Origin: Paratractidigestivibacter faecalis
GTDB taxonomy: Bacteria; Actinomycetota; Coriobacteriia; Coriobacteriales; Atopobiaceae
Length of the DNA stretch: 24,000 nt
Direction: 5' to 3'
Assembly (NCBI RefSeq): GCF_003416765.1
Contig: NZ_QSNG01000001.1
Span: 188,742 to 212,741, forward strand
A program made the position numbers and the translations under genes. Under the pieces are notes generated by a model. It was not told the origin of the DNA. It made no database searches and was given only the letters and a program-made list of their open reading frames with translations. This document shows, piece after piece, positions 1,621 to 16,565 of this stretch; the stretch's first letter is position 1, and every line of letters starts with the position of its first letter.

Positions 1621-1833
1621 GGATCCTCCTTGGGTTGGGTGTCCTCCCATGAGTCTACCCTCGCGCCCCCTGCCGTGACCCGCCAAAGGCAGGACCGCCT
1701 CACCCCCCTGGCGTTTTGCCGGCCAATCGTGTCCGCAGGCGTCCCATTTGGGACTTGAAGCGCTTGCGTGCCTTCCGCTCACCGTATGATGGCGAGAAGC
1801 ACACAGACGCGTTTCGGCGAAAGGACCCGCAAG

Positions 1834-2787
1834 ATGGAAGCTGTTCTTGGCATCGACGTTGGCGGCACCAGCATCAAGGCCGGCCTCTTCACCCCCGAGG
1901 GCGAGCTGCTCGAGGAGCGCAAGGTCCCGACGCCTGCCCTTGTGGATGACGCGGCCTACGCCGTCGTGACCGATGGCCTGAAGCGCATCCTCGACGCCCA
2001 CGACGCCACGCCCGAGGACGTCATCGCCTGCGGCCTGGACATCCCCGGCCCCGTTGCCGATGACGGCACGGTGGGCTTCCTCCCCAACATCAAGCTCGAC
2101 CCGGAGGGCCTGGTGGGCGCCATCAGCTCCGTCTTCCCGCGGGCGCAGATAGCCTTCGTGAACGACGCCAACGCGGCCGCCCTGGGGGAGATGTGGGCCG
2201 GCGTGGCGCACGGCACCTCCAGCTACGTGCTCATTGCCCTGGGCACGGGCGTGGGCGCAGGCGTCGTGGTCAACGGCCGCCTGGTCGCGGGTGCCTTTGG
2301 CGCGGGCGGAGAGATTGGCCACATCACGGTCAACCCGCACGAGACTCTGACCTGCGGCTGCGGTCGCAAGGGCTGCCTTGAGCAGTACGCCAGCGCCAAG
2401 GGCATCGTCCGCCTCTACCTGGCCGAGTGCGAGGCGCGCGGCGTCACGCCCGTCAAGGTGGAGCACGCCACCGACACCCTCTCAGTCTTCCGCGCGCTTG
2501 CCGCCGGCGACGACTGCGCCAAGCTGGCCGTCGACCAGATGTGCGAGTATCTGGCCCAGGCCATGGCCCAGGTCTCCTGCGTCGTCGACCCCGCCATGTA
2601 CCTCATCGGCGGCGGCGTGGCCGGCGCCTTTGCCACGTTTGCCCCGGAGCTGCGCCGCCGCTTTGCCGCCCACGCGCTTCCCACCTGCAGGGACGTCCGC
2701 ATCGAGGCCGCGAGCCTGGGCAACCAGGCGGCCATGTACGGCTGCGCCTACGAGGCCCTGCGCCTGCGCGACGCGGCTGGCAAGTAG
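1834..2787 (+). CDS. ROK-family sugar kinase (glucokinase-like)
   Basis: Start moved to ATG 1834 ('MEAVLGIDVGGTSIKAGLF', the N-terminal DxGGT ATP-binding motif begins immediately). 'GEIGH' and the ROK zinc motif 'CGCGRKGCLEQYAS' are present. 317 aa. Earlier in-frame ATGs (1768, 1786) cannot be excluded. Confidence 0.85.
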   Translation: MEAVLGIDVGGTSIKAGLFTPEGELLEERKVPTPALVDDAAYAVVTDGLKRILDAHDATPEDVIACGLDIPGPVADDGTVGFLPNIKLDPEGLVGAISSVFPRAQIAFVNDANAAALGEMWAGVAHGTSSYVLIALGTGVGAGVVVNGRLVAGAFGAGGEIGHITVNPHETLTCGCGRKGCLEQYASAKGIVRLYLAECEARGVTPVKVEHATDTLSVFRALAAGDDCAKLAVDQMCEYLAQAMAQVSCVVDPAMYLIGGGVAGAFATFAPELRRRFAAHALPTCRDVRIEAASLGNQAAMYGCAYEALRLRDAAGK

Positions 2788-2873
2788 GCGACGGGCGCTT
2801 CTTTCCTCCGTTTGCGTGCGTCGGTGCGCCTCTCGCCGCATAGATGTTGACAAATTGGCAACTGGTGGTTTCT

Positions 2874-2924
2874 AGCACCTCCAAACCGAGTTCGGAGGTG
2901 CTATTCTTTGTGGTGTTGTTTGTG
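2874..2924 (+). terminator. Hairpin plus T-rich tail between the ROK kinase and EIIA-1
   Basis: agcacctcc (2874-2882) pairs with ggaggtgct (2894-2902) across an 11-nt loop, followed by attctttgtggtgttgtttgtg. It is most simply the kinase terminator. A TTGACA box at 2847-2852 sits just upstream but has only a poor -10 (ttctag at 2870), so I make no promoter call. Confidence 0.5.
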
Positions 2925-2971
2925 AAAGCCGCGGCCCAGAACCACTGCGGCATGGCTGAGAAGGAGCCGGC

Positions 2972-3427
2972 ATGAGCGAGACCGTCACCGCGTCCCACGT
3001 TTTCCTTGGCAACACCGCGTCCTCCGTCGACGAGGTCCTGCAGTTCCTGTCCGAGAAGGCCGTCGAGCTGGGCGTCACCGACGACGCCGAGGCCACGCTG
3101 GAGGCCTTCAAGAACCGCGAGGCAGAGGGCACCACGGGCATGATGGGCGGCTTTGCCATCCCGCACTGCAAGAGCGACATTGTCAAGCAGGCTACCGTCA
3201 TGGTCGTCAAGTTCTCCGGCGAGGTTGCCTGGAGCTCCATGGACAACGCCCCCATCAAGTGCGCCATCGCGCTGCTCATTCCCGCCGCGCAGGCTGGCGA
3301 CGTCCACCTGCAGCTGCTCTCCCACGTGGCCGTCCTGGTCATGGATGAGCACTTCAGGGCCGACGTCCTGGCCTCCGATGACCCGGAGCAGATTGCCGCC
3401 CGCCTGAACGAGGACCTGGCCGAGTAG
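2972..3427 (+). CDS. Stand-alone PTS EIIA component, fructose/mannitol (EIIA-2) family
   Basis: 151 aa. Phosphorylatable-His loop 'GGFAIPHCKS' and second family motif 'HLQLLSH'. SD gaaggag lies 5 nt upstream of the ATG. Paralogous by eye to the EIIA at 5497 (shared 'KAVELGVT', 'IPH.KS', 'HLQLL'). Confidence 0.85.
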   Translation: MSETVTASHVFLGNTASSVDEVLQFLSEKAVELGVTDDAEATLEAFKNREAEGTTGMMGGFAIPHCKSDIVKQATVMVVKFSGEVAWSSMDNAPIKCAIALLIPAAQAGDVHLQLLSHVAVLVMDEHFRADVLASDDPEQIAARLNEDLAE

Positions 3428-3451
3428 GCCGCCCCAGGCAAGAGCCTCTTT

Positions 3452-3489
3452 GAGCCCGGTACCTGCCTGGTGCCGGGCTCTTCTTGTGG
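3452..3489 (+). terminator. Rho-independent-type terminator after EIIA-1
   Basis: gagcccggtacc (3452-3463) pairs with ggtgccgggctc (3469-3480), 12 bp including one G-U, with a 5-nt loop. It is followed by ttcttgtgg. Confidence 0.6.
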
Positions 3490-3550
3490 TAGAAGTGATT
3501 GGCGCGGCCCGCTGGCGCCGCCGACCGCATGCGTCCCAGGGGAGAAGACC

Positions 3551-4366
3551 ATGGCCATCAAGCTCATCTTGACCGACATTGACGGCACCATCATGCCCTA
3601 CGGCAAGAGGCAGGTGACGCAGAGGTGCCGCGCCGCCTTCCACGCCGCCATGGACGCGGGCATCCTGGTGGGCCCGGCGAGCGGCCGCTTCTTCTCCTGG
3701 ATCCCCAACTTCTTTGGCGGGGACGAGGCCTGCTGCCAGACGGCGCTTGCCACCAACGGCATGCAGGTCTACCTAGAGGGCCGCAAGGTCCTGCAGAAGG
3801 AGCTGCTGCCCGCCGCGCTGCGGACCATCATGGGGGCGCTTCGGGAAGTGCCCCAGTCCGGCCTGCTGGTCTTTGAGGGCGCCCGACCGCTTCTGGTCCA
3901 GGGCTCCCGGGATGACCTGGCCATTGCCTTCCCGTCCTACGCAAAGACCTGCGAGGACGCCGACGCGCTGCCGGAGGCCGGCATCACCAAGGCAAACGTC
4001 TTCCTGGTGGGGGACCTCGAGCGTACCCGCGAGGTGGTGGGCGCCCTTGACGCGCTGACCGACGAGGTCGACCTCGACGTCCCGCAGCCCATGTTCTCAA
4101 ACGTGGTGCCCGCCGGCTGGAACAAGGGCGCCGCCCTGCGCTGGCTCTGCGAGCGCGTGGGGGTGACCCCCGAGGAGACCGTCGTCTTCGGGGACGCCGG
4201 CAACGACCTGCAGATGTTTGCCGCGACGCCCAACTCGGTCGCCGTGGCCAACGCCCTGCCTGAGGCCCGCGACGCCGCTCGCTACCACATTGGCTCCGTC
4301 GAGGACGACGCGGTTCCCGCCGCCATCGAGGCGCTCGCGCGCGGCGAGTGGCCCTTTGCCGACTAG
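3551..4366 (+). CDS. Cof-type HAD-IIB family phosphatase (sugar-phosphate phosphatase-like)
   Basis: Start moved to ATG 3551, downstream of the 3452-3489 terminator, with SD aggggagaag upstream. HAD motif I 'LILTDIDGTIM' (DxDGT) and motif IV 'FGDAGNDLQMF' (GDxxND). 271 aa, typical Cof size. Confidence 0.8.
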   Translation: MAIKLILTDIDGTIMPYGKRQVTQRCRAAFHAAMDAGILVGPASGRFFSWIPNFFGGDEACCQTALATNGMQVYLEGRKVLQKELLPAALRTIMGALREVPQSGLLVFEGARPLLVQGSRDDLAIAFPSYAKTCEDADALPEAGITKANVFLVGDLERTREVVGALDALTDEVDLDVPQPMFSNVVPAGWNKGAALRWLCERVGVTPEETVVFGDAGNDLQMFAATPNSVAVANALPEARDAARYHIGSVEDDAVPAAIEALARGEWPFAD

Positions 4367-4427
4367 CCTTCCGGGCCTGCCCTTGGAGGTGTCTGGCGGT
4401 GCCGTTTGCGCCGCTGGCGGATTACTT

Positions 4428-4441
4428 AAGACCGCGGTCTT
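4428..4441. promoter_or_regulatory. Perfect 14-bp palindrome upstream of the GntR/HutC regulator gene (candidate operator or weak HAD terminator)
   Basis: aagaccgcggtctt (7-bp arms, no spacer) located 55 nt upstream of the regulator ATG at 4496 and 62 nt past the HAD stop. The role is inferred only from position. Confidence 0.3.
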
Positions 4442-4495
4442 CTTTGCGCCGGGCGTGGGGTACCGTAAAAATGATGGCCGTTGAGAGGAGACCCC

Positions 4496-5233
4496 ATGGG
4501 TGCAACGTCAAAGAAGCAGCCGCTCTATGGCCAGCTGGTGGACAGTCTGCGCGAGAAGATCGAGACCGAGTACGAGCCGGGTGACCTGCTGCCCTCCGAG
4601 CGCGAGCTGTCCGAGGACTACTGCATCTCCCGCACGACGGTGCGTCTGGCGCTGAAGGAGCTCGAGACCCTGGGCTTCATCAAGCGGCGCCACGGCAAGG
4701 GCACCTTCGTCGCCGACCGCTCCCAGGAGACCACCAACCTCACACGCGCCTACAGCTTCTCGGAGCAGATGCGCAGCCTCGGCCGCATCCCGCGCTCCGA
4801 GCTCCTTGAGTTCTGCTCCGGCGAGGCCTCCAAGACGGTGGCCGACCGCATGGGCCTTGCCGCCGGCGAGCGCGTGATCTCAATGCGCCGCCTGCGCCTT
4901 GCCGACGACGTCCCCATGCTCATCGAGCACACCTACCTGCCTGGCAAGATCTTCTCGGGCCTGACGTCTGACGAGGTGGACTCCCGCTCGCTGTACAAGA
5001 TCATGGCCCAGGACTACCACGTCGAGGTCCGCGTGGCCGAGGAGGAGTTCTACGCGAGCGTGGCCCGCAGGGAGGACGCGCGCCTCCTGGGCATCTCCGA
5101 GGGGGCTCCCGTCCTGCAGCTCTTCCGCCTGACCTACAACACCAGAAACCAGGTGGTCGAGTTCACCAAGGGCGTCGCCCGCGCCGACCAGTTCCACTAC
5201 AAGGTCTCCTACTACGGCGGCTCCAGCGCCTGA
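4496..5233 (+). CDS. GntR-family transcriptional regulator, HutC/UTRA subfamily
   Basis: Start at ATG 4496 (SD gagaggag at 4483-4490). N-terminal wHTH 'LPSERELSEDYCISRTTVRLALKELETLGFIKRRHGKGTFV'. The ~170-aa C-terminal part has the length and pattern of the UTRA effector domain. 245 aa. Confidence 0.85.
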   Translation: MGATSKKQPLYGQLVDSLREKIETEYEPGDLLPSERELSEDYCISRTTVRLALKELETLGFIKRRHGKGTFVADRSQETTNLTRAYSFSEQMRSLGRIPRSELLEFCSGEASKTVADRMGLAAGERVISMRRLRLADDVPMLIEHTYLPGKIFSGLTSDEVDSRSLYKIMAQDYHVEVRVAEEEFYASVARREDARLLGISEGAPVLQLFRLTYNTRNQVVEFTKGVARADQFHYKVSYYGGSSA

Positions 5234-5398
5234 CGCTGGGGACGTTGTTAATTACCTGGTAAAAGGGACACCCATGCCGTTGGCCCCCTGCGGGCTGGCG
5301 CGAGTGCCGCCGCATTGCGGCGCTGCGCCGCCGGTGGGTGACAAATACGTCTCAATAGGCACGCTGGCTCCTCGTTTTCCCTGCTCGGTTACGTCGTC

Positions 5399-5457
5399 TT
5401 GTGCACCGGTCGTGTGACAAAGCGCCTCTTAAGCCAAGGCCTTCTCCCCCATAGACT
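5399..5457 (+). promoter_or_regulatory. Candidate activator site plus weak promoter for the PTS operon
   Basis: Imperfect inverted repeat ttgtgcac (5399-5406) - cggtc - gtgtgacaa (5412-5420). Then TTAAGC (5429-5434), a 17-nt spacer and TAGACT (5452-5457), about 40 nt upstream of ATG 5497. The weak -35 fits an activator-dependent promoter. All by-eye. Confidence 0.3.
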
Positions 5458-5496
5458 CTGAGTTGTCAGAGAGATGAGTCGAGAGAGGAGGCAAGC

Positions 5497-5940
5497 ATGG
5501 CCTTGTTCGATTCCAGCCACGTCATTGATGGGCTTGAGGCCGCCGACCAGGACGCCGTCTTTGAGGCCCTGGCGCAGAAGGCCGTCGAGCTCGGAGTGAC
5601 GTCGGATGCGTCCGCAGTCGTCGCAGACCTGCGCGCCCGCGAGGGAGAGGCGTCCACGGGCTTTGGCGACGGCATCGCCATCCCGCACACAAAGAGCCCC
5701 AACGTCGCGGTGCCGTCAATCGTCTTTGCGCGCCTTGGCGCCGGCATCGAGTGGAATGCGCTGGACGGCGAGCCGGTCGATACCGTCATCAACATCCTCG
5801 TTCCGGAGGGCGGCAGCAACACCCACCTGCAGCTTCTTGCCAAGCTGGCGAGAAACCTCGTCCACAAGGACTTTGTCGCAAAGCTCAAGCAGGATTCCAT
5901 TGAGGACGTATGCGCCCTGATTCAGGGCGTCGTCGGATAG
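5497..5940 (+). CDS. PTS EIIA component, fructose/mannitol (EIIA-2) family
   Basis: 147 aa. 'GDGIAIPHTKS' His loop and 'HLQLLAKLA'. SD gagaggagg lies 6 nt upstream of the ATG. First gene of a co-directional, tightly spaced gene string. Confidence 0.88.
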   Translation: MALFDSSHVIDGLEAADQDAVFEALAQKAVELGVTSDASAVVADLRAREGEASTGFGDGIAIPHTKSPNVAVPSIVFARLGAGIEWNALDGEPVDTVINILVPEGGSNTHLQLLAKLARNLVHKDFVAKLKQDSIEDVCALIQGVVG

Positions 5941-5978
5941 CACTGCAGTCATCTAAAGCACAAGGAAAGGAGAAGCGC

Positions 5979-7418
5979 ATGGCAAAGTCCATTGTGGCAG
6001 TGACCAACTGCCCGGCTGGCATCGCCCACACCTACATGGTGGCCGAGGCCATCCAGACCAAGGGCACCGAGCTGGGCTACGAGGTCCACGTGGAGACTCA
6101 GGGCGCCAGCGGCGTTGAGAACAAGCTCACGCCCGAGCAGATCAAGGAGGCCGACTACGTCGTCTTGGCCCTCGGCCGCGGAATGAACGACGACGACCGA
6201 GTCCGCTTTGACGGCAAGAAGGTCGTGGAGGTTCCCGTCTCCGAGGCGCTGAAGCGCATCGACGATCTCATGGGCAACCTCGAGGCTGAGGCCAAGGTCT
6301 TCCACGCCTCCGCGGTCAAGCTCGGCGCCAAGCAGGAGAGCGTCACGACGGGCGTCATGAGCTACCTCATGGCTGGCGTCTCCGCCGCCCTCCCGTTTGT
6401 CATCGGCGGCGGCGTGCTCATGGCCATCGGCTCCATCATGGCGCAGTTCGGCGCACCCAACGTCGCTCCCGGCGACGGCCAGATGGCATCTCTCGCCTGG
6501 GTCCTCAACACCATCGGCGGCCTCGGCTTCACCTTCATGATTCCCATGATGGGCGCCTTCATCGCCAACGCCATCGGCGACAAGCCCGCCATCATGCCCG
6601 CCTTCATCTGCAGCTACCTGGCCAACAGCACCGACCTCCTCGGTACCCAGGTTGGTGCCGGATTCCTCGGCGCCTGCGTCATCGGACTCGCCATCGGCTA
6701 CTTCGTGAAGGCCTTCAAGAAGGTGAACCTGGGCAAGAACTTCCAGTCCCTGCTCGGATTCCTGATCATCCCGGTGGTCACGCTCTTCGTCTTTGGCCTT
6801 GCCACCTACTACATCATCGGCCCTGCCATGGCCTGGCTGATGAACGCCTTCGTTGGCCTCCTGAGCTCCATCCCGAGCTCGATGAAGCTCGTCGCCGCCT
6901 TCCTCGTGGGCGCCATGCTCGCCTTCGACATGGGTGGCCCCGTCAACAAGGCCGCCTGGTTCTTCTCCTTCTCCCTGCTGGGCTCCGGCGTGTATGACTG
7001 GTACGGCATCGTCGGCGTCGTGACCATCCTCCCGCCGATGGCCGCCGCCATCGCCACCTGGATTCGCCCCCAGCTCTTCACGCAGGCCGAGCGCGACTCC
7101 GCGGTTCCCGCCCTCATCGTCGGTGCCACCGTCGCCACCGAGCCGGCCATCCCCTACGCCCTGGCCGCCCCCCTGCCCATGATCTCCGCCAACGTCATTG
7201 CCGGCGGCGTCGCGGGCGCCATCTCCATGGCCCTTGGCGTCGAGCGCATTGCCCCTGGCATTGGCATCTTCGACCCGTTCCTCGGACTCATCTCGCCCGC
7301 CGGCAGCTACTACATCGCCGTTGCCGTCGGCCTGGTTCTGAACATTGCCCTCATCATCGTCTTCAAGTCCGCTTGGATGAAGAAGCGTGAGGCTAAGAAC
7401 GCCCAGTTGAGGCGCTAG
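5979..7418 (+). CDS. PTS EIIBC component, fructose family
   Basis: Start moved to ATG 5979 (SD aaggaaaggag upstream). N-terminal Fru-type EIIB cysteine loop 'VAVTNCPAGIAHTYMVAEAI'. This is followed by a ~350-aa glycine-rich, multi-span hydrophobic EIIC domain. 479 aa. Confidence 0.88.
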   Translation: MAKSIVAVTNCPAGIAHTYMVAEAIQTKGTELGYEVHVETQGASGVENKLTPEQIKEADYVVLALGRGMNDDDRVRFDGKKVVEVPVSEALKRIDDLMGNLEAEAKVFHASAVKLGAKQESVTTGVMSYLMAGVSAALPFVIGGGVLMAIGSIMAQFGAPNVAPGDGQMASLAWVLNTIGGLGFTFMIPMMGAFIANAIGDKPAIMPAFICSYLANSTDLLGTQVGAGFLGACVIGLAIGYFVKAFKKVNLGKNFQSLLGFLIIPVVTLFVFGLATYYIIGPAMAWLMNAFVGLLSSIPSSMKLVAAFLVGAMLAFDMGGPVNKAAWFFSFSLLGSGVYDWYGIVGVVTILPPMAAAIATWIRPQLFTQAERDSAVPALIVGATVATEPAIPYALAAPLPMISANVIAGGVAGAISMALGVERIAPGIGIFDPFLGLISPAGSYYIAVAVGLVLNIALIIVFKSAWMKKREAKNAQLRR

Positions 7419-7426
7419 ATTGGTTG

Positions 7427-7464
7427 GCCTCGTGGGACCGTCGGCTGCGGCGGTCCCACGAGGC
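7427..7464 (+). other. Strong intercistronic stem-loop between EIIBC and the C-S lyase gene
   Basis: gcctcgtgggaccg (7427-7440) pairs perfectly with cggtcccacgaggc (7451-7464). Three more pairs are possible inside, giving about 17 bp with a tetraloop. The tail gtctgtgaaagg is not U-rich, and the lyase SD aaaggagaggg follows directly. Confidence 0.6.
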
Positions 7465-7487
7465 GTCTGTGAAAGGAGAGGGAAGGC

Positions 7488-8663
7488 ATGCGCTACGACT
7501 TCGATCGCGTGATTGACAGGATGGGTACCTACAGCACGCAGTGGGACTACGCCGCCGACCGCTTTGGCAGGCCGGACGTCCTTCCCTTCTCCATCTCCGA
7601 CACCGACTTCGCCGTTCCCGACGAGGTCATGGGCGCGCTCCGTGCCCGTATGGAACACCCCATCTTTGGGTACACGCGTTGGAATCACGCCGACTACAAG
7701 TCAGGCGTCGTCGGCTGGTTCGAGCGTGATGGGGTATCCCATGTGGACATGGACTGGGTTGTCTACAGCCCCAGCGTCATCTACTCTGCCGCCTCCATCA
7801 TCCGCCTGGCGAGCGAGCCGGGGGATGCCGTGGTCACCCTGAGCCCCATGTACGATGCGTTCTATGGCCTCATCGAGGGAAACGGCCGCACGCTTCTCTC
7901 CGTGAGCCAGGCGAGCGCGATGGATGGCTACGGGCTCGACTGGGACGCCCTCGAGGCGGCACTGGCCAGGCGAGAGTCCAAGGTCATGCTGCTCACCAAC
8001 CCCCACAACCCCACCGGCAAGGTCTTCAGCAGAGAAGAGCTCGAGCGCATCGTCGAGCTCTGCGACAGGCATGGGGTCTTTCTCGTGTCGGATGACATCC
8101 ACCGCGATGTCATCCTGGGCGAAGTGCCCTACACGCCCGTCACCGACGTGACGACTAAGGGCGTCGCTCTTCTCTGTTCGGCCTCCAAGACGTTCAACAC
8201 GCCCGGCCTCATCGGCTCGTACGCCCTCTTGCCGGAGGAGGGCCTGAGGGAGCGCTTCCTCTATGAGCTCAAGCAGAAGAACGCCCTCTCGAGCGTGAGC
8301 ATCCTCGGCATGACCGCCCAGATGGAGGCGTACCGCTCGGGCTCCGAGTACGTCAGCGAGATGGTCTCCTACGTCCGGGCCAACATGGAGGCGCTCAAGG
8401 CGTTTCTCGACGAGAGTCTCCCTGAGATCAGGTTCGAGGTCCCCGAGGGAACCTACCTTGCCTGGATGGACGCGTCCGGCCTTGGCCTTGAGGCTTCCGA
8501 GCTGCAGCGAAGGCTTGTGGACGTCGGCCACGTTGGCATAATGTCTGGCGAGACGTACGGCGGCGCGGGGTACCTGCGCATGAACCTCGCCTGCCCAAGG
8601 TCAAAGGTGGAGAGGGGGATGGAGCGGATGCTTCGGGGCATTCGCCTGCAGACGTCATGCTAA
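7488..8663 (+). CDS. PLP-dependent C-S beta-lyase / cystathionine beta-lyase of the MalY/PatB family (class I/II aminotransferase fold)
   Basis: 391 aa. N-terminal 'YDFDRVIDRMGTYSTQWDY' signature of MalY/PatB-type enzymes, 'NPHNPTGKVF', and PLP-lysine motif 'CSASKTFNTPGL'. SD aaaggagaggg upstream. Confidence 0.85.
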   Translation: MRYDFDRVIDRMGTYSTQWDYAADRFGRPDVLPFSISDTDFAVPDEVMGALRARMEHPIFGYTRWNHADYKSGVVGWFERDGVSHVDMDWVVYSPSVIYSAASIIRLASEPGDAVVTLSPMYDAFYGLIEGNGRTLLSVSQASAMDGYGLDWDALEAALARRESKVMLLTNPHNPTGKVFSREELERIVELCDRHGVFLVSDDIHRDVILGEVPYTPVTDVTTKGVALLCSASKTFNTPGLIGSYALLPEEGLRERFLYELKQKNALSSVSILGMTAQMEAYRSGSEYVSEMVSYVRANMEALKAFLDESLPEIRFEVPEGTYLAWMDASGLGLEASELQRRLVDVGHVGIMSGETYGGAGYLRMNLACPRSKVERGMERMLRGIRLQTSC

Positions 8664-10420
8664 GCAAGAGGCAAAGACAGCTCCTTCGGACGCTCGACGA
8701 GGGCCCTCGCTCTGGCTCCGAGCTCGCCCGGGCCCTGGGGGTCTCCCGCCGCACGGTCATTCGCGAGGTGGCCAGCGTCAGCGCGTGGCTCGAGTCCATG
8801 GGCGCGGGCAGCATAGCGAGCGATCCCAACTACCACCTCGTGGTGACGTCGGACGAGGCGCTCGCGTCGCTTCTCTCGCAGGACCTCTCGGATGAGGCTC
8901 GCGTCCTGTTGTGCGTTCTCAGGACCCCGGGCGTCGCAATCGCCCAGGTGGCCGAGGAGACCTACCTGTCCCCGAGGGCCGTCCGCGCCGCCATGGCCGA
9001 GGCCAACGACCGCCTCCAGGGAATCGCAAGCCTGGAGGCTCGCGTCGGCTACGGCATCGACGCCCGCTTCACGGGCATGGAGGCCCCTGACCTTCTCGCC
9101 GCGCTTGCCATGGACAACTCGGGCGTCTTGGCCGAGCTTGAACGCTCCTGCGGCGTCGACTCCCTGATGCGCATGGTTGGCGAGAAGAGCGACGAGTATC
9201 GGCTGCTCATGGAGCCCTACCTCTCCCAGGGGCAGCTCAGGATTCAGACCCTCGCCGCCGCATACTGCTGCGCGTGGATCGTGCCCGACTCAACGGGCGT
9301 GGCGGATGCCCGCGTCCGCGCCGTCTCGCTGTTCCAGGGGCGCAAGCAGCGTCTTCTGTACCGGCTGATCACGCATCGGGCGGCCATTCTGGCGCGAATC
9401 AACGAGGCCCTCTCCTCCCATGGCATAAGGCCAACCAGAGAGGACCTGGGTAGCCTCATCTTTGACCACGTGCTGCGCTGCGCGCTCTTTCCCACGCTCA
9501 TGTCTGCGGAGATCCAGGGACAGATGCGCTCCATGCGCATGGAGCATCCGTTTGAGTTCGACTTCGGAAGCGACCTTTCCGAGAGCTTCAGGGAGTTTGA
9601 CGAGCACCTGTATGTGGAGCCCGACTTTCTTTCTCTCTACGTGCTGGCGTCTCTCGAGCACTACTCCCAGCGGCCCGTCCGCGTTCTTCTGGTCTGCAGC
9701 CGTCCCTCCGTGGCGACCATCAACAAGACCCTGATCGAGCGTGGCGTCGATGGCGTAGAGATAGAGCTCGCCGATGACGAGGCCCAGGCAAAGAGGCTCC
9801 TTGAGCAGGGGACTCATGACTTGGTGGTCGGCGACTCCATCGTTGCCTCGAGGTTCAGCGCCGGGCACGACTGGGACCTCTCGTTCTCGGGAGTCCTGTC
9901 TGCGGCGGAGGTGGACCGCATACGCCAGCTTGCGCTGCGGGTTCTCTACGAGTGCGACATAGAGAACCTCCTGCCCAAGGGCAGCTACCTCGAGCTGCAT
10001 GTCGGGGGGACCGACTACCTCTCCGAGCTCTCCTGCGGGCTCAAGGTCCTGGAGGAGAGGGGCGCGTTGTCCGCGGAGGAGACGGGCCTGATCCTCGACA
10101 GGGAGAACCAGGGCGAGCGGCTGCAGCTCGACGGGGTTGCCTTTCCGCACTCCATCACCCCCGTCATGTCGGCCACCTTCCGGCTCCTCGTCATCCGTCC
10201 GGACGTGCCGCTGCGCGATGGGGGTGAGTCCATCGGCCTCATTGTCATCACGCTTGCCAGCCAGCGGCTTGCGGACAAGAGCAGCATGTTCAACTACCTC
10301 TTCTCCGTCATGCACGACGCCGAGCGCTCGCACGCGCGGCTTCCGCGCAGCTACGGGGAGGTCGTCTCGTTCCTGAGGCGTGACTTTGGCTATGCCAGCC
10401 AAGCGAAAGAGGGGGAGTGA
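8657..10420 (+). CDS. PTS-controlled transcriptional regulator of the MtlR/LicR/FrvR type (HTH - PRD-like - EIIB-like - EIIA-like)
   Basis: 587 aa. N-terminal HTH 'KRQRQLLRTLDEGPRSGSELARALGVSRRTVIREV', then a second HTH-like segment. The central His-containing helical region ('LIFDHVLRCALFP', 'MRMEHPFEF') is consistent with a PRD. 'VRVLLVCSRPSVATINK' resembles an EIIB-like Cys loop. The C-terminal EIIA-2-like domain has 'LDGVAFPHSITP'. The ATG overlaps the lyase stop (ATGCTAA, 8657-8663). There is no AAA+/sigma-54 module. Confidence 0.75.
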   Translation: MLSKRQRQLLRTLDEGPRSGSELARALGVSRRTVIREVASVSAWLESMGAGSIASDPNYHLVVTSDEALASLLSQDLSDEARVLLCVLRTPGVAIAQVAEETYLSPRAVRAAMAEANDRLQGIASLEARVGYGIDARFTGMEAPDLLAALAMDNSGVLAELERSCGVDSLMRMVGEKSDEYRLLMEPYLSQGQLRIQTLAAAYCCAWIVPDSTGVADARVRAVSLFQGRKQRLLYRLITHRAAILARINEALSSHGIRPTREDLGSLIFDHVLRCALFPTLMSAEIQGQMRSMRMEHPFEFDFGSDLSESFREFDEHLYVEPDFLSLYVLASLEHYSQRPVRVLLVCSRPSVATINKTLIERGVDGVEIELADDEAQAKRLLEQGTHDLVVGDSIVASRFSAGHDWDLSFSGVLSAAEVDRIRQLALRVLYECDIENLLPKGSYLELHVGGTDYLSELSCGLKVLEERGALSAEETGLILDRENQGERLQLDGVAFPHSITPVMSATFRLLVIRPDVPLRDGGESIGLIVITLASQRLADKSSMFNYLFSVMHDAERSHARLPRSYGEVVSFLRRDFGYASQAKEGE

Positions 10421-10424
10421 GCCC

Positions 10425-11828
10425 GTGGGAGAGACGTCTTCGAGGCGGCAGATCGAGGCATACGTCAACGAGGTCTGGCCCGACTACCTGCGTGACCTGG
10501 AGTGCCTAGTTGCGGTTCCGAGCGTGGTCGACGAGTCCGCCTCGGCTCCCGGCGCCCCCTGGGGGCCAAGCTGCCGCGAGGCCCTGGACGTGGCGATGGG
10601 CATAGCCGAGCGCCAGGGGCTCATCGTGGGCGACTGCGATGGCGCCCTTGCCTACGGCGACCTTCCGGGCGAGACCGACGAGCAGGTTGCCACCATTGCG
10701 CACGTCGACGTGGTCCCGGCTGGCGAGGGGTGGGACGTCGAGCCCTTTGCCGTGACCCGCCGCGATGGCGTGCTTCTTGGACGCGGCGTGCTCGACGACA
10801 AGGGGGCTGCCGTGGCCTCGCTCTATGCCGCGGGCTACCTTGCCCGTCGCGCGGCGTCGGGCCGTCCCTTCCGCCGCTCCCTCAGGTGCCTTCTCGGCGC
10901 GTCCGAGGAGGCTGGCATGATGGACGTCCGCCGCTACCTCGCTAGCCACGAGCCGCCCGGCTTCCTGTTCACGCCAGATGCCGAGTTTCCCGTCTGCTGT
11001 GGCGAGAAGGGCTGCGTCAACGCCGAGGTTAGCCATGCCGTTGACCATACGGGCGTGATCGCTTCCCTGTCTGGTGGCGTGGCGAGAAACGCCGTTCCCG
11101 CCCGCGCCGAGGCCGTTTTGAGGGTGGACGCGCAAGGGCTGCCCGCGGCCGAGGGCGTGGACGTGGCCTCTGCCGGAGCAGGCGCCTCTCGGGTCATTGC
11201 CCATGGGGTCGCAGGGCACGCAGCAGAGCCGGCGGGCGCGACTAACGCAATAGGGGTGCTTGCGAACTACCTCCTGAGGCTTGGCTGCCTGGGGCCCTCC
11301 GAGCGCGAGTTTGTCTCCCTTTGCAAGAGGGCTGTTTGCGCGTGGGACGGCTCGGGCCTCGGGATTGAGGCGAGCGATGAGCTGTTTGGCCCCCTGACCT
11401 GCGTCGGAGGAATGCTCTGGACGCGGGAGGGGAGGTTTGCGCTGACCCTGGACGTTCGTCTTCCGGCCGCGGCCGGCGTGGAGAGCGTCTGCTCCGGGCT
11501 GGAGCGGGCCGGGTCCGAGCATGGCTGCGAGGTCCTCATAACCCACACGCGGCAGACCTTCTCGACAGATCCGGGCTCTGGGGAGGTTATGGCGCTTCGC
11601 CGTGCCTACGAGGAGTTCTCGGGCCGGGAGGCAACGCCCTTCGCCATCGGCGGGGGAACGTACGCCCACCACTTCCCCAGCGCCGTTGGGTTTGGGCCGC
11701 TTGACCGCTCCGAGCCCCTGCCGGACTGGGTCGGTCCGGAGCACGGCCCCAACGAGGGCGTTTGGGAGCATCAGCTCAAGCGTGCCCTGGCAATCTACAT
11801 CCGGGCCCTGGAGGGGCTTCTGGCCTAG
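10425..11828 (+). CDS. M20-family dipeptidase (PepV/Sapep-like)
   Basis: 'IAHVDVVPAGEGWDVEPF', 'GRGVLDDKGAAVASLYA' and 'GASEEAGMMD' are the metal-binding and catalytic motifs of M20A dipeptidases. Preferred start is GTG 10425 (SD agagggggag at 10407-10416, 8-nt spacing; 467 aa). The alternative ATG 10392 would overlap the regulator gene by 29 nt. Confidence 0.8.
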   Translation: MGETSSRRQIEAYVNEVWPDYLRDLECLVAVPSVVDESASAPGAPWGPSCREALDVAMGIAERQGLIVGDCDGALAYGDLPGETDEQVATIAHVDVVPAGEGWDVEPFAVTRRDGVLLGRGVLDDKGAAVASLYAAGYLARRAASGRPFRRSLRCLLGASEEAGMMDVRRYLASHEPPGFLFTPDAEFPVCCGEKGCVNAEVSHAVDHTGVIASLSGGVARNAVPARAEAVLRVDAQGLPAAEGVDVASAGAGASRVIAHGVAGHAAEPAGATNAIGVLANYLLRLGCLGPSEREFVSLCKRAVCAWDGSGLGIEASDELFGPLTCVGGMLWTREGRFALTLDVRLPAAAGVESVCSGLERAGSEHGCEVLITHTRQTFSTDPGSGEVMALRRAYEEFSGREATPFAIGGGTYAHHFPSAVGFGPLDRSEPLPDWVGPEHGPNEGVWEHQLKRALAIYIRALEGLLA

Positions 11829-11909
11829 CCGCCGCGCCGCCGGCCTAGCGGTCGGCGTTGCATTCTCGCCAGGCGAGAAGCGCCTGCGGCATTTCTGGCG
11901 AGTTTTGCC

Positions 11910-11992
11910 TTGAACCAAGTAGTTCAATTTTGTCGTGCTATAGTTGCCACAAGTTCAATTTCAAAGTTGAACTTCAGTCCTCAAATTGAACT
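11910..11992 (+). promoter_or_regulatory. AT-rich promoter/operator array upstream of the HTH-aminotransferase gene
   Basis: Extended -10 tgcTATAGT (11936-11944). Inverted repeat ttgaac-N6-gttcaa (11910-11927). 24-bp near-perfect palindrome aagttcaatttcaaagttgaactt (11951-11974). The 10-mer agttcaattt occurs at 11921 and 11952 and as its reverse complement aaattgaact at 11983, giving exact 31-nt spacing. Confidence 0.55.
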
Positions 11993-12008
11993 ACGGGAGA
12001 AGCACACG

Positions 12009-13550
12009 ATGGCACGGGAGACTTTCCAGACAAGACTCAAGAGGGCCATGGAGAGTGCCGGCCTCAAGCAGGTCGACCTCGTGCGCATTGCCGCCGAGCG
12101 TGGGGCCAAGCTCGGAAAGAGCCAGGTCAGCCAGTATGTCTCGGGCAAGGTCACGCCCCGAAGGGACGTCATGGAGCTCCTTGCCGGCGTCCTTGGGGTC
12201 ACGCCCCAGTGGCTTATGGGCGCCACGGACGCCATGCCTGACGAAGTCGCGCCCGCGGACGCCACGGCCGAGACCGCCGCGCCCCAAGCCCCGAGCACTT
12301 CTCGCCAAAAGACAACGGACCAAGGGAGCGTCACCATGCGAGAGTTCAAGAAGTCCAACAAGCTCGACAACGTCCTGTACGACGTCCGCGGCCCCGTGGT
12401 GGACGAGGCCGCCCGCATGGAGGAGGACGGTGCGCGCATCCTGAAGCTCAACATCGGCAACCCGGCGCCGTTTGGCTTCAGGGCTCCCGACGAGGTGGTC
12501 TACGACATGCGCCAGCAGCTCACGGACTGCGAGGGCTACTCGGACTCCCGCGGTCTCTTTGCCGCGCGCAAGGCCATCATGCAGTACGCCCAGCTGCGCA
12601 ACATCCCCAACGTGGACATGAAGCACATCTACACCGGCAACGGCGTCTCCGAGCTCATCCAGCTCTCCATGCACGCGCTCGTCGACGACGGCGACGAGGT
12701 GCTCATCCCCAGCCCGGACTACCCGCTGTGGACCGCCTGCGTCACCCTGGCCGGCGGCCACGCCGTCCACTACGTCTGCGACGAGCAGAACGAGTGGAAC
12801 CCTGACCTGGCCGACATGGAGTCCAAGGTCACCAGCCGCACCAAGGCCATCGTGGTCATCAACCCCAACAACCCCACGGGTGCCGTCTACTCCAAGGAGG
12901 TTCTGGAGGGCATCGTCGAGATCGCCCGCAAGCACCAGCTCATGATCTTTGCCGACGAGATCTACGATCGCCTGATTATGGACGGCTACCAGCACACCTC
13001 CATCGCCTCGCTCGCGCCCGACCTGCCGTGCGTGACGTTCTCCGGCCTCTCCAAGTCCCATATGATCTGCGGCTACCGCGTGGGTTGGATGGTGCTCTCG
13101 GGCAACCAGCGCTGCATGAGGGACTTCATCTACGGCGTCAACATGCTGTCCAACATGCGCCTGTGCTCCAACGTGCCCGCGCAGTCCATCGTCCAGACGG
13201 CCCTGGGCGGCTACCAGAGCGTCAACGAGTACATCCGCCCCGGCGGCCGCGTCTACGAGCAGCGCAACTACGTCTACGAGGCGCTCAACGCCATCGACGG
13301 CATTACGGCCGTCAAGCCCAAGGCGGCCTTCTACATCTTCCCCAAGATGGACGTCAAGAAGTTCAACATCACGGACGACGAGCAGTTTGCCCTTGACCTG
13401 CTGCACCAGAAGAAGATCCTCATCACCCGCGGCGGCGGCTTCAACTGGGGTGAGCCCGACCACTTCCGCATTGTCTACCTGCCGCGCATGGAGGTGCTCA
13501 GGGAGTCCATGGAGGACCTCGCGGACTTCTTCGCGCACTATCGCCAGTAG
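12009..13550 (+). CDS. XRE-family HTH domain fused to an AlaA/AlaT-type PLP-dependent aminotransferase
   Basis: Start moved to ATG 12009. Residues 1-~72 form an XRE HTH ('LKQVDLVRIAAERGAKLGKSQVSQYVSGKVTPRRDVMELLAGVLGVTPQWLMG'), followed by a ~35-aa Ala/Pro/Thr linker. From M110 ('MREFKKSNKLDNVLYDVRGP') there is a full aminotransferase: 'KLNIGNP', 'VVINPNNPTGAVY', PLP-lysine 'SGLSKSHMICGYRVGW'. One uninterrupted frame, 513 aa. Confidence 0.85.
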   Translation: MARETFQTRLKRAMESAGLKQVDLVRIAAERGAKLGKSQVSQYVSGKVTPRRDVMELLAGVLGVTPQWLMGATDAMPDEVAPADATAETAAPQAPSTSRQKTTDQGSVTMREFKKSNKLDNVLYDVRGPVVDEAARMEEDGARILKLNIGNPAPFGFRAPDEVVYDMRQQLTDCEGYSDSRGLFAARKAIMQYAQLRNIPNVDMKHIYTGNGVSELIQLSMHALVDDGDEVLIPSPDYPLWTACVTLAGGHAVHYVCDEQNEWNPDLADMESKVTSRTKAIVVINPNNPTGAVYSKEVLEGIVEIARKHQLMIFADEIYDRLIMDGYQHTSIASLAPDLPCVTFSGLSKSHMICGYRVGWMVLSGNQRCMRDFIYGVNMLSNMRLCSNVPAQSIVQTALGGYQSVNEYIRPGGRVYEQRNYVYEALNAIDGITAVKPKAAFYIFPKMDVKKFNITDDEQFALDLLHQKKILITRGGGFNWGEPDHFRIVYLPRMEVLRESMEDLADFFAHYRQ

Positions 13551-13820
13551 CGGGTCGCCCGGGGTCTCGCAGCCATCGGTCCACCCAGGCCGCCTCGCCG
13601 TCTGCCGGTGCGTCACGCACCTGTAACGGCGGGGCGGCTACATTTTTCCTACATGTCGGATTGCGCCCCCGCTCCGTGGCGGGCGTTTGGATTGCGGCGT
13701 TACTGTGTGCACGCACTTTGTCTACCTGCGGACTTGTTTCTGCAACGTAAACTTGTGAGCTTGTGAAGCGGCGCATGGTGCGCCGCGCTGTGAACGCCCG
13801 TGGGGCGCAGAAGGAGACGC

Positions 13821-14849
13821 ATGTCTGAGTACACCGAGAACGAGAACGTGATGGACGAGGCCCTGGAGGCCGCTGAGGAGACGGTCGAGGAGACCGAGGA
13901 GATCGTCGAGGCCGAGGAGGCTGCCGACGAGGAGACCGAGCAGGCCGAGGAGGTCGTCGCCGAGGAGCAGGACCGCGACGCCATCCTCTTTGACAAGGCA
14001 CAGCGTGCCGCCCGCCTTCTGCGCAACCGTCGCGACGCCATCTCCAAGGAGGCCGACACCAAGGCCGAGCGCATGAGCGACATGGTTCGTGCCCTCAAGC
14101 TCCTGGAGCTCAAGCCCAAGATGGAGCAGAAGGAGATGGCCGACCTGCTGGGCATGAGCCTGCGCGCCCTTGACGAGCTCATGGCCAAGGCCGAGGCCGA
14201 GGACCTGGTGGGCCGCATCGAGTCCGAGGAGGACGACAAGCGCAAGGTCGTCGTCTTCGCCGCCGAGGGCGCCGTCGAGGCTGCCGCCAACGCCAAGCCG
14301 GAGAAGGACCACTACGTCCCCAGCCTCTCTGACGAGAAGATCGACGAGATTTGCGCCATGCTCGACGAGATCATCAACCCGCTGACCGAGATGGGCCTGG
14401 ACAACGACCGTCGCGACGGCCGCGGTGGCTTCGGCGGCCGCGATGACCGTCGCGGTGGCGACCGCAACGGCTTCCGCGGCGGCGACCGTGGCGGCCGTGG
14501 CGGCTTCGGCGGCCGTGGCGGCGACCGTGGTGGCCGCGGCGGCTTCGGCGGCCGCGATGACCGTCGCGGCGGCGACCGTGGCGGCCGCAGCTTTGGCGAC
14601 CGTGACAGCCGTGGCGGCGACCGTGGTGGCCGCGGCGGCTTCGGCGGCCGCGATGACCGTCGCGGCGGCGACCGTGGCGGCCGCAGCTTTGGCGACCGTG
14701 GCGGCTACGGCAACCGTGGCGGCTACGGCGACCGTGGCGACCGTGGTGGCTACGGCGGCCGTGACAGCCGTGGCGGCGACCGTGGCGGTCGTGGCGGCTA
14801 CGGCTCCCGTGGCGGCTACGGCAACCGCGGCGGCTACAACCGCGACTAG
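13821..14849 (+). CDS. Hypothetical protein: acidic N-terminal tract, MarR-like wHTH-looking core, C-terminal RGG/RGGF/RGGY repeat tail
   Basis: ATG 13821 with SD aaggag (13811-13816); 342 aa. Residues 1-~52 are about 60% Glu/Asp. The core 'MVRALKLLELKPKMEQKEMADLLGMSLRALDELMAKAEAEDLVGRIESEEDDKRKVVVF' follows the MarR wHTH pattern by eye. Residues ~194-342 contain 23 RGG triplets by my count. A canonical terminator follows. The frame is supported by G/C-dominated third positions and the SD. Confidence 0.75.
   Translation: MSEYTENENVMDEALEAAEETVEETEEIVEAEEAADEETEQAEEVVAEEQDRDAILFDKAQRAARLLRNRRDAISKEADTKAERMSDMVRALKLLELKPKMEQKEMADLLGMSLRALDELMAKAEAEDLVGRIESEEDDKRKVVVFAAEGAVEAAANAKPEKDHYVPSLSDEKIDEICAMLDEIINPLTEMGLDNDRRDGRGGFGGRDDRRGGDRNGFRGGDRGGRGGFGGRGGDRGGRGGFGGRDDRRGGDRGGRSFGDRDSRGGDRGGRGGFGGRDDRRGGDRGGRSFGDRGGYGNRGGYGDRGDRGGYGGRDSRGGDRGGRGGYGSRGGYGNRGGYNRD
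14512..14700 (+). repeat. In-frame tandem duplication within the RGG tail coding region
   Basis: 14512-14604 and 14608-14700 are identical over 93 nt (period 96 nt = 32 codons, 'GGDRGGRGGFGGRDDRRGGDRGGRSFGDR'). A diverged third copy of the GGFGGRDDRRGGDR core lies at ~14425-14466. The whole span 14400-14846 is a degenerate GGC/CGT/GAC repeat. Confidence 0.95.
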
Positions 14850-14875
14850 CCCCTCGCTCAACGCGCAGGCGCAAA

Positions 14876-14909
14876 GGAGCCCCCGGGTCATCTCGGGGGC
14901 TCCTTTTTT
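14876..14909 (+). terminator. Rho-independent terminator of the RGG-protein gene
   Basis: ggagcccccg (14876-14885) pairs with cgggggctcc (14894-14903), a perfect 10 bp with an 8-nt loop. It is followed by tttttt (14904-14909) and preceded by aaa, so weak bidirectional use is possible. Confidence 0.85.
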
Positions 14910-14916
14910 GTTGAGA

Positions 14917-14949
14917 AATGAGACAAAGGGACAGTCCCTTTGTCTCATT
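14917..14949. other. Second, perfect 15-bp hairpin at the convergent junction with pdxT
   Basis: aatgagacaaaggga (14917-14931) pairs with tccctttgtctcatt (14935-14949) across a 3-nt loop (cag). There is no U-tract on either strand. It lies 17 nt from the pdxT stop (14966-14968). Confidence 0.6.
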
Positions 14950-14965
14950 GCGTAATTGATGTACC

Positions 14966-16434: not shown

Positions 16435-16450
16435 GCGTTTCTCCTTTGCG

Positions 16451-16543
16451 TAGCCAATGCGTGTGCGAGCTATGCTAGGCCCAATCTGGCATGAGCAAAA
16501 CATCCAGACTATGACAAAATAACCAGGTCAGAATAGGACCAAT
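16451..16543. promoter_or_regulatory. pdxS/pdxR divergent control region with three same-orientation TAG(G)(N)CCAAT boxes (candidate PdxR sites)
   Basis: tagccaat (16451-16458), taggcccaat (16476-16485) and taggaccaat (16534-16543). The last two are 9/10 identical. They lie in a locally AT-rich 131-bp gap between divergent pdxS (start 16434) and pdxR (start 16566). Confidence 0.4.
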
Positions 16544-16565
16544 AAGCAGGATCGGATAAGGCCAG

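Follow-up and report, generated by a model that had tools for sequence, protein, structure and literature searches.

What does a bacterium do with a sugar transporter whose gene neighbors encode a carbon-sulfur lyase and a dipeptidase? The question is raised by five genes on one strand of Paratractidigestivibacter faecalis (contig NZ_QSNG01000001.1, positions 188,742 to 212,741; this whole stretch of 24,000 nucleotides [nt], with a G+C content of ~66%, was analyzed and is called the window). They encode the EIIA and EIIBC proteins of a fructose-family phosphotransferase system (PTS), a pyridoxal phosphate (PLP)-dependent lyase, a regulator, and an M20 dipeptidase. Kinase, phospho-glycosidase, isomerase, and aldolase genes were all absent among the five, as had been noticed in an earlier interpretation made from the letters alone (the sequence-only reading). 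Here, we report that the operon is, judged by homology, of the frv type, with FrvA, FrvB, and FrvR homologues, a lyase at the position of FrvX, and the M20 enzyme at the end. We propose, at a little under an even chance (about 0.45), that it is a catabolic frv-family operon whose substrate is a carbohydrate or polyol linked to an amino acid or to a dipeptide.

The operon and its five products

The five co-directional genes lie where the sequence-only reading had placed them, and each is preceded by a Shine-Dalgarno (SD) sequence (all junctions were read; Table 1). The EIIA gene has the SD GGAGG (5487-5491), and the 38-nt gap between the EIIA and EIIBC genes contains the next. The lyase stop overlaps the regulator start (ATGCTAA), and the regulator stop is 4 nt from the GTG of the M20 gene. 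Two starts had been offered for the latter; GTG 10425 is most likely correct, since it has a good SD (GGGGGAG) and ATG 10392 has none.

Table 1 Positions in the window of the operon, its control elements, and the genes on either side (aa, amino acids)
Feature	Position	Strand	Remarks
Promoter/operator region	5338-5457	+	Putative function; from an alignment of upstream regions of Collinsella species
EIIA (FrvA type)	5497-5940	+	147 aa; PTS_EIIA_2
EIIBC permease (FrvB type)	5979-7418	+	479 aa; IIB and EIIC domains
Hairpin	7427-7464	+	17 bp, GC rich, no T-run; within the 69-nt EIIBC-lyase gap
MalY-clade PLP beta (C-S) lyase	7488-8663	+	391 aa
FrvR-type regulator	8657-10420	+	587 aa
M20A dipeptidase, Sapep/PepV type	10425-11828	+	467 aa; GTG start
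ROK-family kinase	1768-2787	+	Upstream cluster
Second fructose-type EIIA	2972-3427	+	36% identical to the operon EIIA; His present; no permease of its own
Cof-type HAD phosphatase	3470-4366	+	Upstream cluster
GntR/UTRA regulator	4481-5233	+	Upstream cluster
Fusion of XRE-type HTH_3 and alanine-aminotransferase-like PLP domain	12009-13550	+	513 aa; start ATG 12009; PRK08363, 350 bits, below the cutoff

Both transporter proteins were closest to the cryptic E. coli frv system. EIIA matched Pfam PTS_EIIA_2 (114.9 bits), had the FrvA model PRK09913 as its best NCBIfam match (145.5 bits; cutoff, 151), and was 35% identical to E. coli FrvA, with a predicted phosphorylatable active-site residue, His64, in GIAIPH. 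EIIBC scored 786.8 bits with the FrvB model PRK11404, just below the equivalog cutoff of 806 and ahead of MngA (273.7 bits) and FruA (262.9 bits); it was 62% identical to E. coli FrvB over 473 residues and carried IIB Cys11 within NCPAGIAHTYM. It also shared 96% amino acid identity with many Collinsella genomes, C. aerofaciens included, compared to 84% for the lyase, 76% for EIIA, 72% for FrvR, and ~71% for M20. This unevenness fits stronger purifying selection on the permease; recent recombination is disfavored as its cause by nucleotide identity (88 to 90% for frvB and 68 to 80% elsewhere; over loci L002-L018, 87 to 90% for frvB and 61 to 81% for the other operon genes).

The lyase belongs to the MalY/PatB family, as had been proposed, and stands closer to MalY than to PatB. 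Its best solved relative was E. coli MalY (1D2F; 371 bits, 43% identity), with Bacillus subtilis PatB second, and it scored 337.4 bits with the PatB-family model TIGR04350 (cutoff, 340; the L. salitolerans orthologue reached 353.6). The PLP-binding Lys234 was present together with Tyr122, Asn174, Asp202, and Arg364 (K234 and Y122 correspond to MalY K233 and Y121), and these catalytic residues were invariant among PTS-linked lyases across 36 to 60% sequence divergence. Three motifs marked the clade, T17-Q-W-D-Y21, D24-R-F-G27, and LPFSISD (L-P-F-[ST]-I-S-D across the clade); all were invariant in 9/9 PTS-linked lyases, MalY included (36 to 60% mutual identity), and TQWD was found in 118 of 120 close lyase homologues. 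As controls, three distant PatB-family genes (27 to 35% identity) all lacked the clade motifs. They adjoined a cysteine synthase, an NhaC-type carrier, or a DMT carrier, and none lay directly downstream of a PTS gene (at the Klebsiella control locus, an unrelated PTS cluster lies ~2 kb away on the opposite strand). Because the distant PatB genes lack both the PTS linkage and the motifs, the operon lyase is not a housekeeping MetC/PatB, and the objection foreseen in the sequence-only reading, that it might group with housekeeping MetC, did not hold.

The N-terminal segment of PatB lines the leaving-group pocket and differs among orthologues (PMC7385124). The same segment was invariant and polar/aromatic in the PTS-linked clade (TQWDY..DRFG), which is a hint of a shared polar leaving group. 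Among characterized relatives, L. sakei MalY is a beta-lyase on cysteine and a broad racemase (200 μg enzyme, 50 mM substrate, 60 min; PMC5845896), and the product of C. difficile malY, a gene of a PTS operon with strong induction in biofilm, shows cysteine desulfhydrase activity in vitro (PMC6143707). E. coli MalY binds MalT and thereby represses the mal regulon (PMC5845896); the window operon has no counterpart of this interaction.

The regulator, described in the sequence-only reading as of PRD/EIIA type, showed only helix-turn-helix (HTH) matches in Pfam (HTH_11 and HTH_24 at the N terminus), and a PRD gave no Pfam match even at an E value of 1. The remaining domains were recovered by profile comparison. 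The protein matched the NCBIfam FrvR model PRK09863 (280.3 bits over residues 1 to 574; cutoff, 426), was 24% identical to E. coli FrvR, and aligned at full length with LicR-type PRD regulators (hhalign probability, 99.8%; E = 8e-28), references which are HTH-Mga-PRD-EIIB-EIIA by Pfam. The resulting architecture is an HTH, a second (Mga-like) winged helix, a PRD-like region (His271), a degenerate EIIB-like region, and an EIIA-like domain (His498), with a single PRD-like region rather than two. In hhalign, the PRD and EIIA histidines were matched by His271 and His498, respectively; H271..R274 and P497-H498 (the EIIA type-2 active-site motif) were invariant in an alignment with seven homologues that included E. 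coli FrvR. The EIIB-like region could be aligned, but its cysteine was not conserved among FrvR homologues. Pfam detected PTS_EIIA_2 in orthologues of the regulator.

The peptidase exceeded the cutoff of TIGR01887 (268.7 bits; cutoff, 207.95), and its nearest solved structures were Staphylococcus aureus Sapep (3KHX) and PepV (1LFW). The metal and catalytic residues His93, Asp95, Asp125, Glu161, Glu162, Asp184, and His449 were present in an alignment to Sapep 3KHX, read with the residue numbering of PepV (1LFW). It fell below the cutoffs as an equivalog of PepV (PRK07318, 271.2 versus 435; TIGR01886, 179.5 versus 632) and of the dipeptidase acting on the Cys-Gly conjugate of 3-methyl-3-sulfanylhexan-1-ol (Cys-Gly-3M3SH; NF052477, 156.6 bits versus 1025).

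The stem-loop first noticed in the gap between permease and lyase genes is a strong hairpin (−40.9 kcal/mol; z = −5.3), and 0/200 shuffled sequences folded as well. A strong hairpin of varying sequence occupied the same position in 12/12 taxa, followed in L. casei, Ligilactobacillus, and some Atopobium by a T-run, as in an intrinsic terminator. It may act as a partial terminator, a processing site, or an mRNA stabilizer, and transcription may be attenuated past the PTS genes. A consensus scan of the window placed no terminator-like site between operon genes on the operon strand; the four matches inside 5497-11828 were all within coding sequence, and matches numbered 7 window-wide compared to 4.7 expected from shuffles. 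Co-transcription of all five genes is no more than likely, because the conserved hairpin, terminator-like in Lactobacillaceae, divides the PTS genes from the lyase gene.

Upstream of the EIIA gene, two GTGACAAA boxes (5338-5345 and 5414-5421, 76 nt apart) are followed by a weak −35 element (TTAAGC, 5429-5434), a 17-nt spacer, and a −10-like element (TAGACT, 5452-5457). These elements were kept across Collinsella species despite differing upstream neighbor genes. A sigma-70 consensus scan of the window returned no promoter, which, with the weak −35 and −10-like elements, is consistent with a promoter that depends on an activator, presumably FrvR. No Rfam family matched anywhere in the window.

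Recurrence of the permease-lyase pair

A genome scan with EIIBC yielded 33 loci (66 to 96% identity), which were searched by tblastn with the window proteins. The lyase gene lay directly after the FrvB orthologue in 32/32 informative loci (those extending far enough past the permease) from Coriobacteriaceae, Atopobiaceae, and Lactobacillaceae, and FrvR and M20 came next in 26/26 informative loci of Coriobacteriia (Collinsella, Olsenella, Atopobium, and relatives). The conserved core is, on this gene order, the four genes EIIA-EIIBC-lyase-regulator, because Lactobacillaceae (Ligilactobacillus, Loigolactobacillus, L. plantarum, and L. casei) carry EIIA-EIIBC-lyase-FrvR without M20; the M20 gene is an extra confined to Coriobacteriia. 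The single five-gene unit of the sequence-only reading was thus borne out as to conserved gene order, across families and phyla, and not as to M20, and the co-conservation in related genomes on which that reading had hung was found.

Some Lactobacillaceae copies of the cassette showed signs of decay. A Ligilactobacillus metagenome-assembled genome (MAG) (L032, 11854-12765) had a lyase shortened to 280 aa plus a different, divergent 637-aa regulator, and an L. plantarum strain and an L. casei-type contig each had a split or shortened FrvR (L036, 9168-10915; L038, 9693-11048). In L. plantarum (L035/L036, 780-5614), and only there, the cassette came right after an N-acetylmuramic acid (MurNAc) cluster (mupG, a murQ-like SIS gene, a Glc-family EIIBC gene [murP], an RpiR gene, and an EIIA gene); it preceded a bglG-PTS-GH1 cluster and is part of a sugar-uptake island.

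A metagenome scan with an alignment of nine lyases gave 80 loci, those closest to the window lyase (43 to 84% identity; 36 clusters at 90% lyase identity), which were typed by search with a panel of reference proteins. Within this clade, a PTS EIIC gene lay upstream of the lyase gene on the same strand in 61/61 loci whose upstream flank measured 2.5 kb or more (two were frameshifted and needed a second look). By permease type, with some loci of shorter upstream flank counted in, 24 were of Frv type, arranged as in the window and with M20 in the Coriobacteriia ones; 14 were of MalX type (true MalX orthologues by TIGR02004, with RpiR regulators); 31 were of Lac/cellobiose type (PRD regulator-M42-IIA-IIB-IIC-M24-lyase-RDD protein); and 1 was of Fry type (PRD regulator-EIIA-EIIB-FryC [64%]-M24-M42-lyase). 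With these 24 metagenomic loci added to the 32/32 genome loci, the window arrangement recurs far beyond chance. M42 and M24 genes were both present in 30/31 Lac-type loci and in the Fry-type locus; MalX-type loci had no same-strand peptidase gene beside the lyase gene (14/14; L072 and L073 have an M24 gene on the opposite strand). The Lac-type cluster was also found on an Enterococcus raffinosus megaplasmid and is drawn, without comment on its meaning, for L. sakei LT-13 in the L. sakei MalY paper (PMC5845896).

Distant FrvB neighborhoods (~60% identity to the window EIIBC) were more varied: EIIA-EIIBC-M42-lyase-FrvR in Listeria newyorkensis, RpiR-EIIABC-M42-lyase in a Mycoplasmatales MAG, EIIA-EIIBC-FrvR-lyase-M20/M28-like peptidase in Granulicatella, RpiR-RidA-alanine dehydrogenase-lyase-EIIABC-M42 in locus L041, and A-B-M42-R without a lyase in the frv operons of Hafnia and E. 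coli. The permease keeps the lyase as its fixed companion under four regulator types (FrvR, RpiR, LicR-type PRD, and MalI), and the peptidases are what varies. To judge from these gene orders, peptidases of different families have been joined to the permease-lyase pair at least three times, and the pairing of a PTS with a peptidase, first suggested from the window alone, recurs in unrelated forms (M20, M42, and M24). No module examined contained a phospho-glycosidase or sugar-phosphate enzyme. RpiR/SIS regulators, a family that typically senses sugar phosphates, were present in several variants.

Two further observations concern these modules. Four Lac-type loci (L077, L081, L084, and L088; ~12700-13890) carry a second, distant PatB-like lyase gene (32 to 34% identical) ~3.5 kb downstream of the MalY-clade one, with a SpoU-type methylase gene before it and a class II fructose-bisphosphate aldolase gene after it. 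FrvB-M42 "fusion" proteins (~830 aa) were set aside as evidence of coupling; the one examined came from an E. coli rha-frv context with overlapping genes and is probably a frameshift or gene-calling artifact.

The precedents named in the sequence-only reading proved to be homologues of the window genes rather than mere analogies. E. coli frvABXR shares the homologous EIIA, EIIBC, and regulator, the order A-B-[enzyme]-R, and a metallopeptidase within the unit; it differs in having the M42 enzyme FrvX between frvB and frvR, where the window has the lyase, with M20 after the regulator. A tblastn search with FrvX gave no M42 match in the window. Enterobacterial frv operons lack the lyase, whereas L. 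newyorkensis has both M42 and lyase. In E. coli malX-malY and C. difficile CD3027-CD3030, the lyase gene comes right after that of a PTS permease, as here, and MalY shares the clade-specific N-terminal motifs; however, MalX is of the glucose/maltose PTS family and the window EIIBC of the fructose family, and malXY-type operons have MalI or RpiR regulators and, unlike the window, no same-strand peptidase beside the lyase. E. coli fryB-fryC-ypdF(M24)-ypdE(M42)-fryA joins a PTS permease to metallo-aminopeptidases, with neither a sugar-phosphate enzyme nor a lyase. Lac-family clusters (L. sakei LT-13, E. raffinosus, and gut metagenome contigs) combine permease, metallo-aminopeptidases, and a MalY-clade lyase, like the window. 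Fry and Lac clusters differ from it in permease lineage, in having M42 and M24 instead of M20, in a LicR-type regulator with a clear PRD, and in an extra RDD membrane protein. By these comparisons, E. coli frvABXR, fryBC-ypdEF, and malXY look like partial versions of one uncharacterized module. Our literature search turned up no work on the function of the frv or fry operons and none on a PTS-peptidase-lyase unit, in agreement with the statement of the sequence-only reading that no characterized system has this composition.

A candidate substrate and its rivals

The simplest reading of composition and synteny is that the substrate is a monosaccharide or polyol O- or S-linked to serine or cysteine, free or in a short peptide. 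The constant pair consists of a permease that phosphorylates sugars and a PLP enzyme, which requires a free alpha-amino acid with a leaving group on the beta-carbon; the variable additions to that pair are exopeptidases. FrvA and FrvB would import the conjugate and phosphorylate its sugar part with phosphoenolpyruvate. The M20 enzyme would then strip the neighboring residue (which implies a dipeptide), leaving the conjugated residue with a free amino group and a free carboxylate, and the lyase would cleave the bond at the beta-carbon to give sugar phosphate, pyruvate, and ammonia. The freed sugar phosphate would enter central metabolism without a dedicated glycosidase. We hold this release of the sugar by beta-elimination to be doubtful and less likely than the general proposal above. 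FrvR would bind the two GTGACAAA boxes, PTS phosphorylation at His271 and His498 would switch the promoter, and the hairpin after frvB would set the ratio of transporter to enzyme transcripts. What the sequences show are the gene identities, the intact catalytic residues, and the conserved linkage of PTS, lyase, and peptidases; we infer the substrate class, the order of steps, the sugar-releasing role of the lyase, the operator assignment, and the role of the hairpin.

Parts of this scheme have parallels. MngA and MngB import 2-O-mannosyl-glycerate by a PTS and split the phosphorylated product with a dedicated enzyme, although MngB is a glycosidase. Salmonella DgaABCD/DgaE pairs a PTS for D-glucosaminate with a PLP-dependent ammonia-lyase and so shows, by analogy, that a PTS can be paired with an eliminating enzyme that uses PLP, although the PTS is of the mannose family and the enzyme of another PLP family. 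No peptidases are involved in the Mng and Dga pathways. In locus L041, RidA and alanine dehydrogenase match the products of beta-elimination, 2-aminoacrylate and then pyruvate and ammonia.

Several points count against the proposal. To our knowledge, PLP-dependent beta-elimination of O-glycosyl serine has not been reported, and we found no experiment linking such PTS systems to a glyco-amino acid. The clade motifs served as search patterns in the metagenome scan, so that the 61/61 count describes this clade and not the whole family, and RidA was met in one locus only. Enterobacterial frvABXR and fry have peptidases without the lyase, and Lactobacillaceae and MalX-type modules have the lyase without a peptidase; lyase and peptidase are not strictly interdependent, since each occurs without the other. 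Stand-alone M20 paralogues of similar identity (~46 to 49%) exist in Coriobacteriia, and the M20 tree does not cleanly split operon-linked from stand-alone copies. The activities measured for MalY-type enzymes (on cysteine, cystine, and cystathionine, and racemization) are generic (PMC5845896, PMC6143707, PMC7385124).

The conjugate might instead be an amide or ester (an aminoacyl- or peptidyl-aminosugar, for example, of the cysteinyl-glucosamine type), from which the peptidase frees the sugar phosphate, with the lyase only degrading the cysteine-like residue to pyruvate, NH3, and H2S. M20, M42, and M24 enzymes hydrolyze aminoacyl amides, cysteine desulfhydrase is the activity measured for L. 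sakei and C. difficile MalY, and the lyase is missing beside the peptidases of E. coli frv and fry. Yet the universal partner of the permease is the lyase, not the peptidase, so that the Lactobacillaceae Frv cassettes and the MalX-type loci would leave such a link uncleaved, and a dedicated, invariant polar pocket motif is unexpected for plain cysteine; we regard an amide or ester link as unlikely. An Amadori (N-alpha-fructosyl) compound, one of the substrates suggested in the sequence-only reading, is also unlikely, as a blocked alpha-amine is incompatible with a PLP lyase and with aminopeptidases. A noncarbohydrate Cys-Gly S-conjugate (body odor or mercapturate like) with a hydroxylated aglycone, from which M20 removes glycine and the lyase releases a thiol, has bile-derived conjugates in the gut as a possible source. 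It also has the sole characterized pathway that we found with an M20 and PatB/MalY-family pair. In this thioalcohol pathway (DtpT, PepV or TpdA, and PatB or AecD), an M20 dipeptidase acts before a PatB/MalY-family lyase, in Corynebacterium as in S. hominis (PMC7385124, PMC11742315). The S. hominis substrate, a Cys-Gly conjugate taken up by a peptide transporter, yields its thioalcohol to PepV (M20A) followed by PatB, and the three genes are unlinked (PMC11742315). The differences are several: uptake there is by a proton-coupled peptide transporter, whereas the partner here is always a PTS, of four sugar-specific lineages; PepV of that pathway is a general dipeptidase, and the window M20 falls far short of the Cys-Gly-3M3SH model; the thioalcohol pocket is hydrophobic (PMC7385124), with Tyr25 and apolar residues in ShPatB, and the N-terminal segment of this clade, compared at the sequence level, is polar; and E. 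coli MalY prefers cystathionine over Cys-3M3SH (PMC7385124). Such a conjugate is therefore an unlikely substrate.

Three rivals would give the lyase a different role. It might act as a partner or antagonist of the regulator of a PTS for an ordinary sugar, with M20 as a passenger; the MalY-MalT pair is a precedent (PMC5845896), the lyase and regulator genes overlap at stop and start, and lyase and FrvR genes adjoin in most Frv-type loci. This moonlighting alternative of the sequence-only reading was weakened and is improbable, given the intact catalytic residues, invariant despite divergence, the persistence of PTS linkage under RpiR, LicR-type PRD, or MalI instead of FrvR, the repeated recruitment of peptidases of three families, the RidA and alanine dehydrogenase genes of L041, and the missing sugar-phosphate enzyme. 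Were the substrate a D-amino-acid glycopeptide, for example, a cell wall-derived one, the lyase would serve as a broad racemase and the peptidases would degrade the stem peptide. L. sakei MalY does racemize many amino acids in vitro (PMC5845896) and the L. plantarum cassette adjoins MurNAc genes (mupG-murQ-murP-rpiR), but that adjacency is confined to L. plantarum, a muramoyl-alanine amidase is lacking, the enzyme and substrate amounts in the racemase assay were those given above, and RidA with alanine dehydrogenase fits elimination rather than racemization; a racemase role is quite improbable. Finally, the lyase and M20 could be housekeeping sulfur-amino-acid and peptide enzymes that lie beside a fructose-like PTS by coincidence, as stand-alone M20 paralogues exist and MalY/PatB enzymes can replace MetC (PMC7385124). 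Adjacency in 32/32 and 61/61 loci, across phyla and four permease lineages, operon genes that overlap or sit 4 nt apart, and distant PatB genes that are not PTS linked make coincidence highly improbable.

The Ser/Cys-linked sugar reading can be carried beyond this operon only tentatively. Lyases of the MalY clade may release the sugar in a widespread, unrecognized catabolic route, with PLP-dependent beta-elimination in place of the phospho-glycosidase, although we hold this to be doubtful. On the same doubtful footing, several PTS families would take up serine or cysteine that is O- or S-glycosylated, either free or within short peptides of mucin or of plant, yeast, or bacterial glycoproteins, with the metallopeptidases trimming the peptides.

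Surrounding genes and significance

The four genes upstream (1768-5233) were excluded from the operon, being common only to the nearest relative (L017) and not to other Collinsella; a permease-less EIIA gene beside kinase and phosphatase genes is unusual. Downstream, the HTH-aminotransferase gene was likewise excluded: it is preceded by an AT-rich stretch of its own that bears repeats, and Olsenella and Atopobium lack it after M20. The repeats, AGTTCAA/TTGAACT (within 11900-13550), look like an operator of this gene. With the L041 alanine dehydrogenase gene (pyruvate to alanine), which adjoins the lyase gene there, it forms a parallel that may be meaningful or fortuitous. The next ~1.4 kb (13551-14965) has long open reading frames on both strands (408 aa, minus; 349 aa, plus) without a Pfam or NCBIfam match, and at its start lies the sole plus-strand terminator-like site (13668-13683).

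Farther on, 3 to 6 kb from the operon, pdxT-pdxS (PLP synthase, minus strand) and a divergent pdxR (MocR type, 472.7 bits) occupy 14966-17978, which places PLP synthesis genes and four PLP-fold proteins (the lyase, the HTH-aminotransferase, and PdxR among them) within ~10 kb. The region is also rich in peptide-degrading enzymes, with an M32 carboxypeptidase (70-1560, minus strand), whose gene is kept in position in L017, the nearest relative, alone, and a PreP-like peptidase of the M16 family (18149-21088, minus strand).

E. coli frv, fry, and malXY have been without a substrate or rationale for about three decades, and no physiological reaction is assigned to MalY. Fuller versions of the module are available in lactobacilli, enterococci, and Listeria, all amenable to genetics, and in Coriobacteriia, which are abundant in the gut; an old annotation puzzle becomes a hypothesis that can be tested, with glyco-amino acids and glycopeptides as candidates. 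If the wider route were true, the cryptic E. coli frv, fry, and malXY operons would be its remnants and the control of MalT by MalY a secondary acquisition. It would also mean that deglycosylation can follow a new chemical logic and that bacteria of gut and food draw on a new class of nutrients, and it would give a physiological context to microbial C-S lyases, which bear on H2S, flavor thiols, and xenobiotic metabolism.

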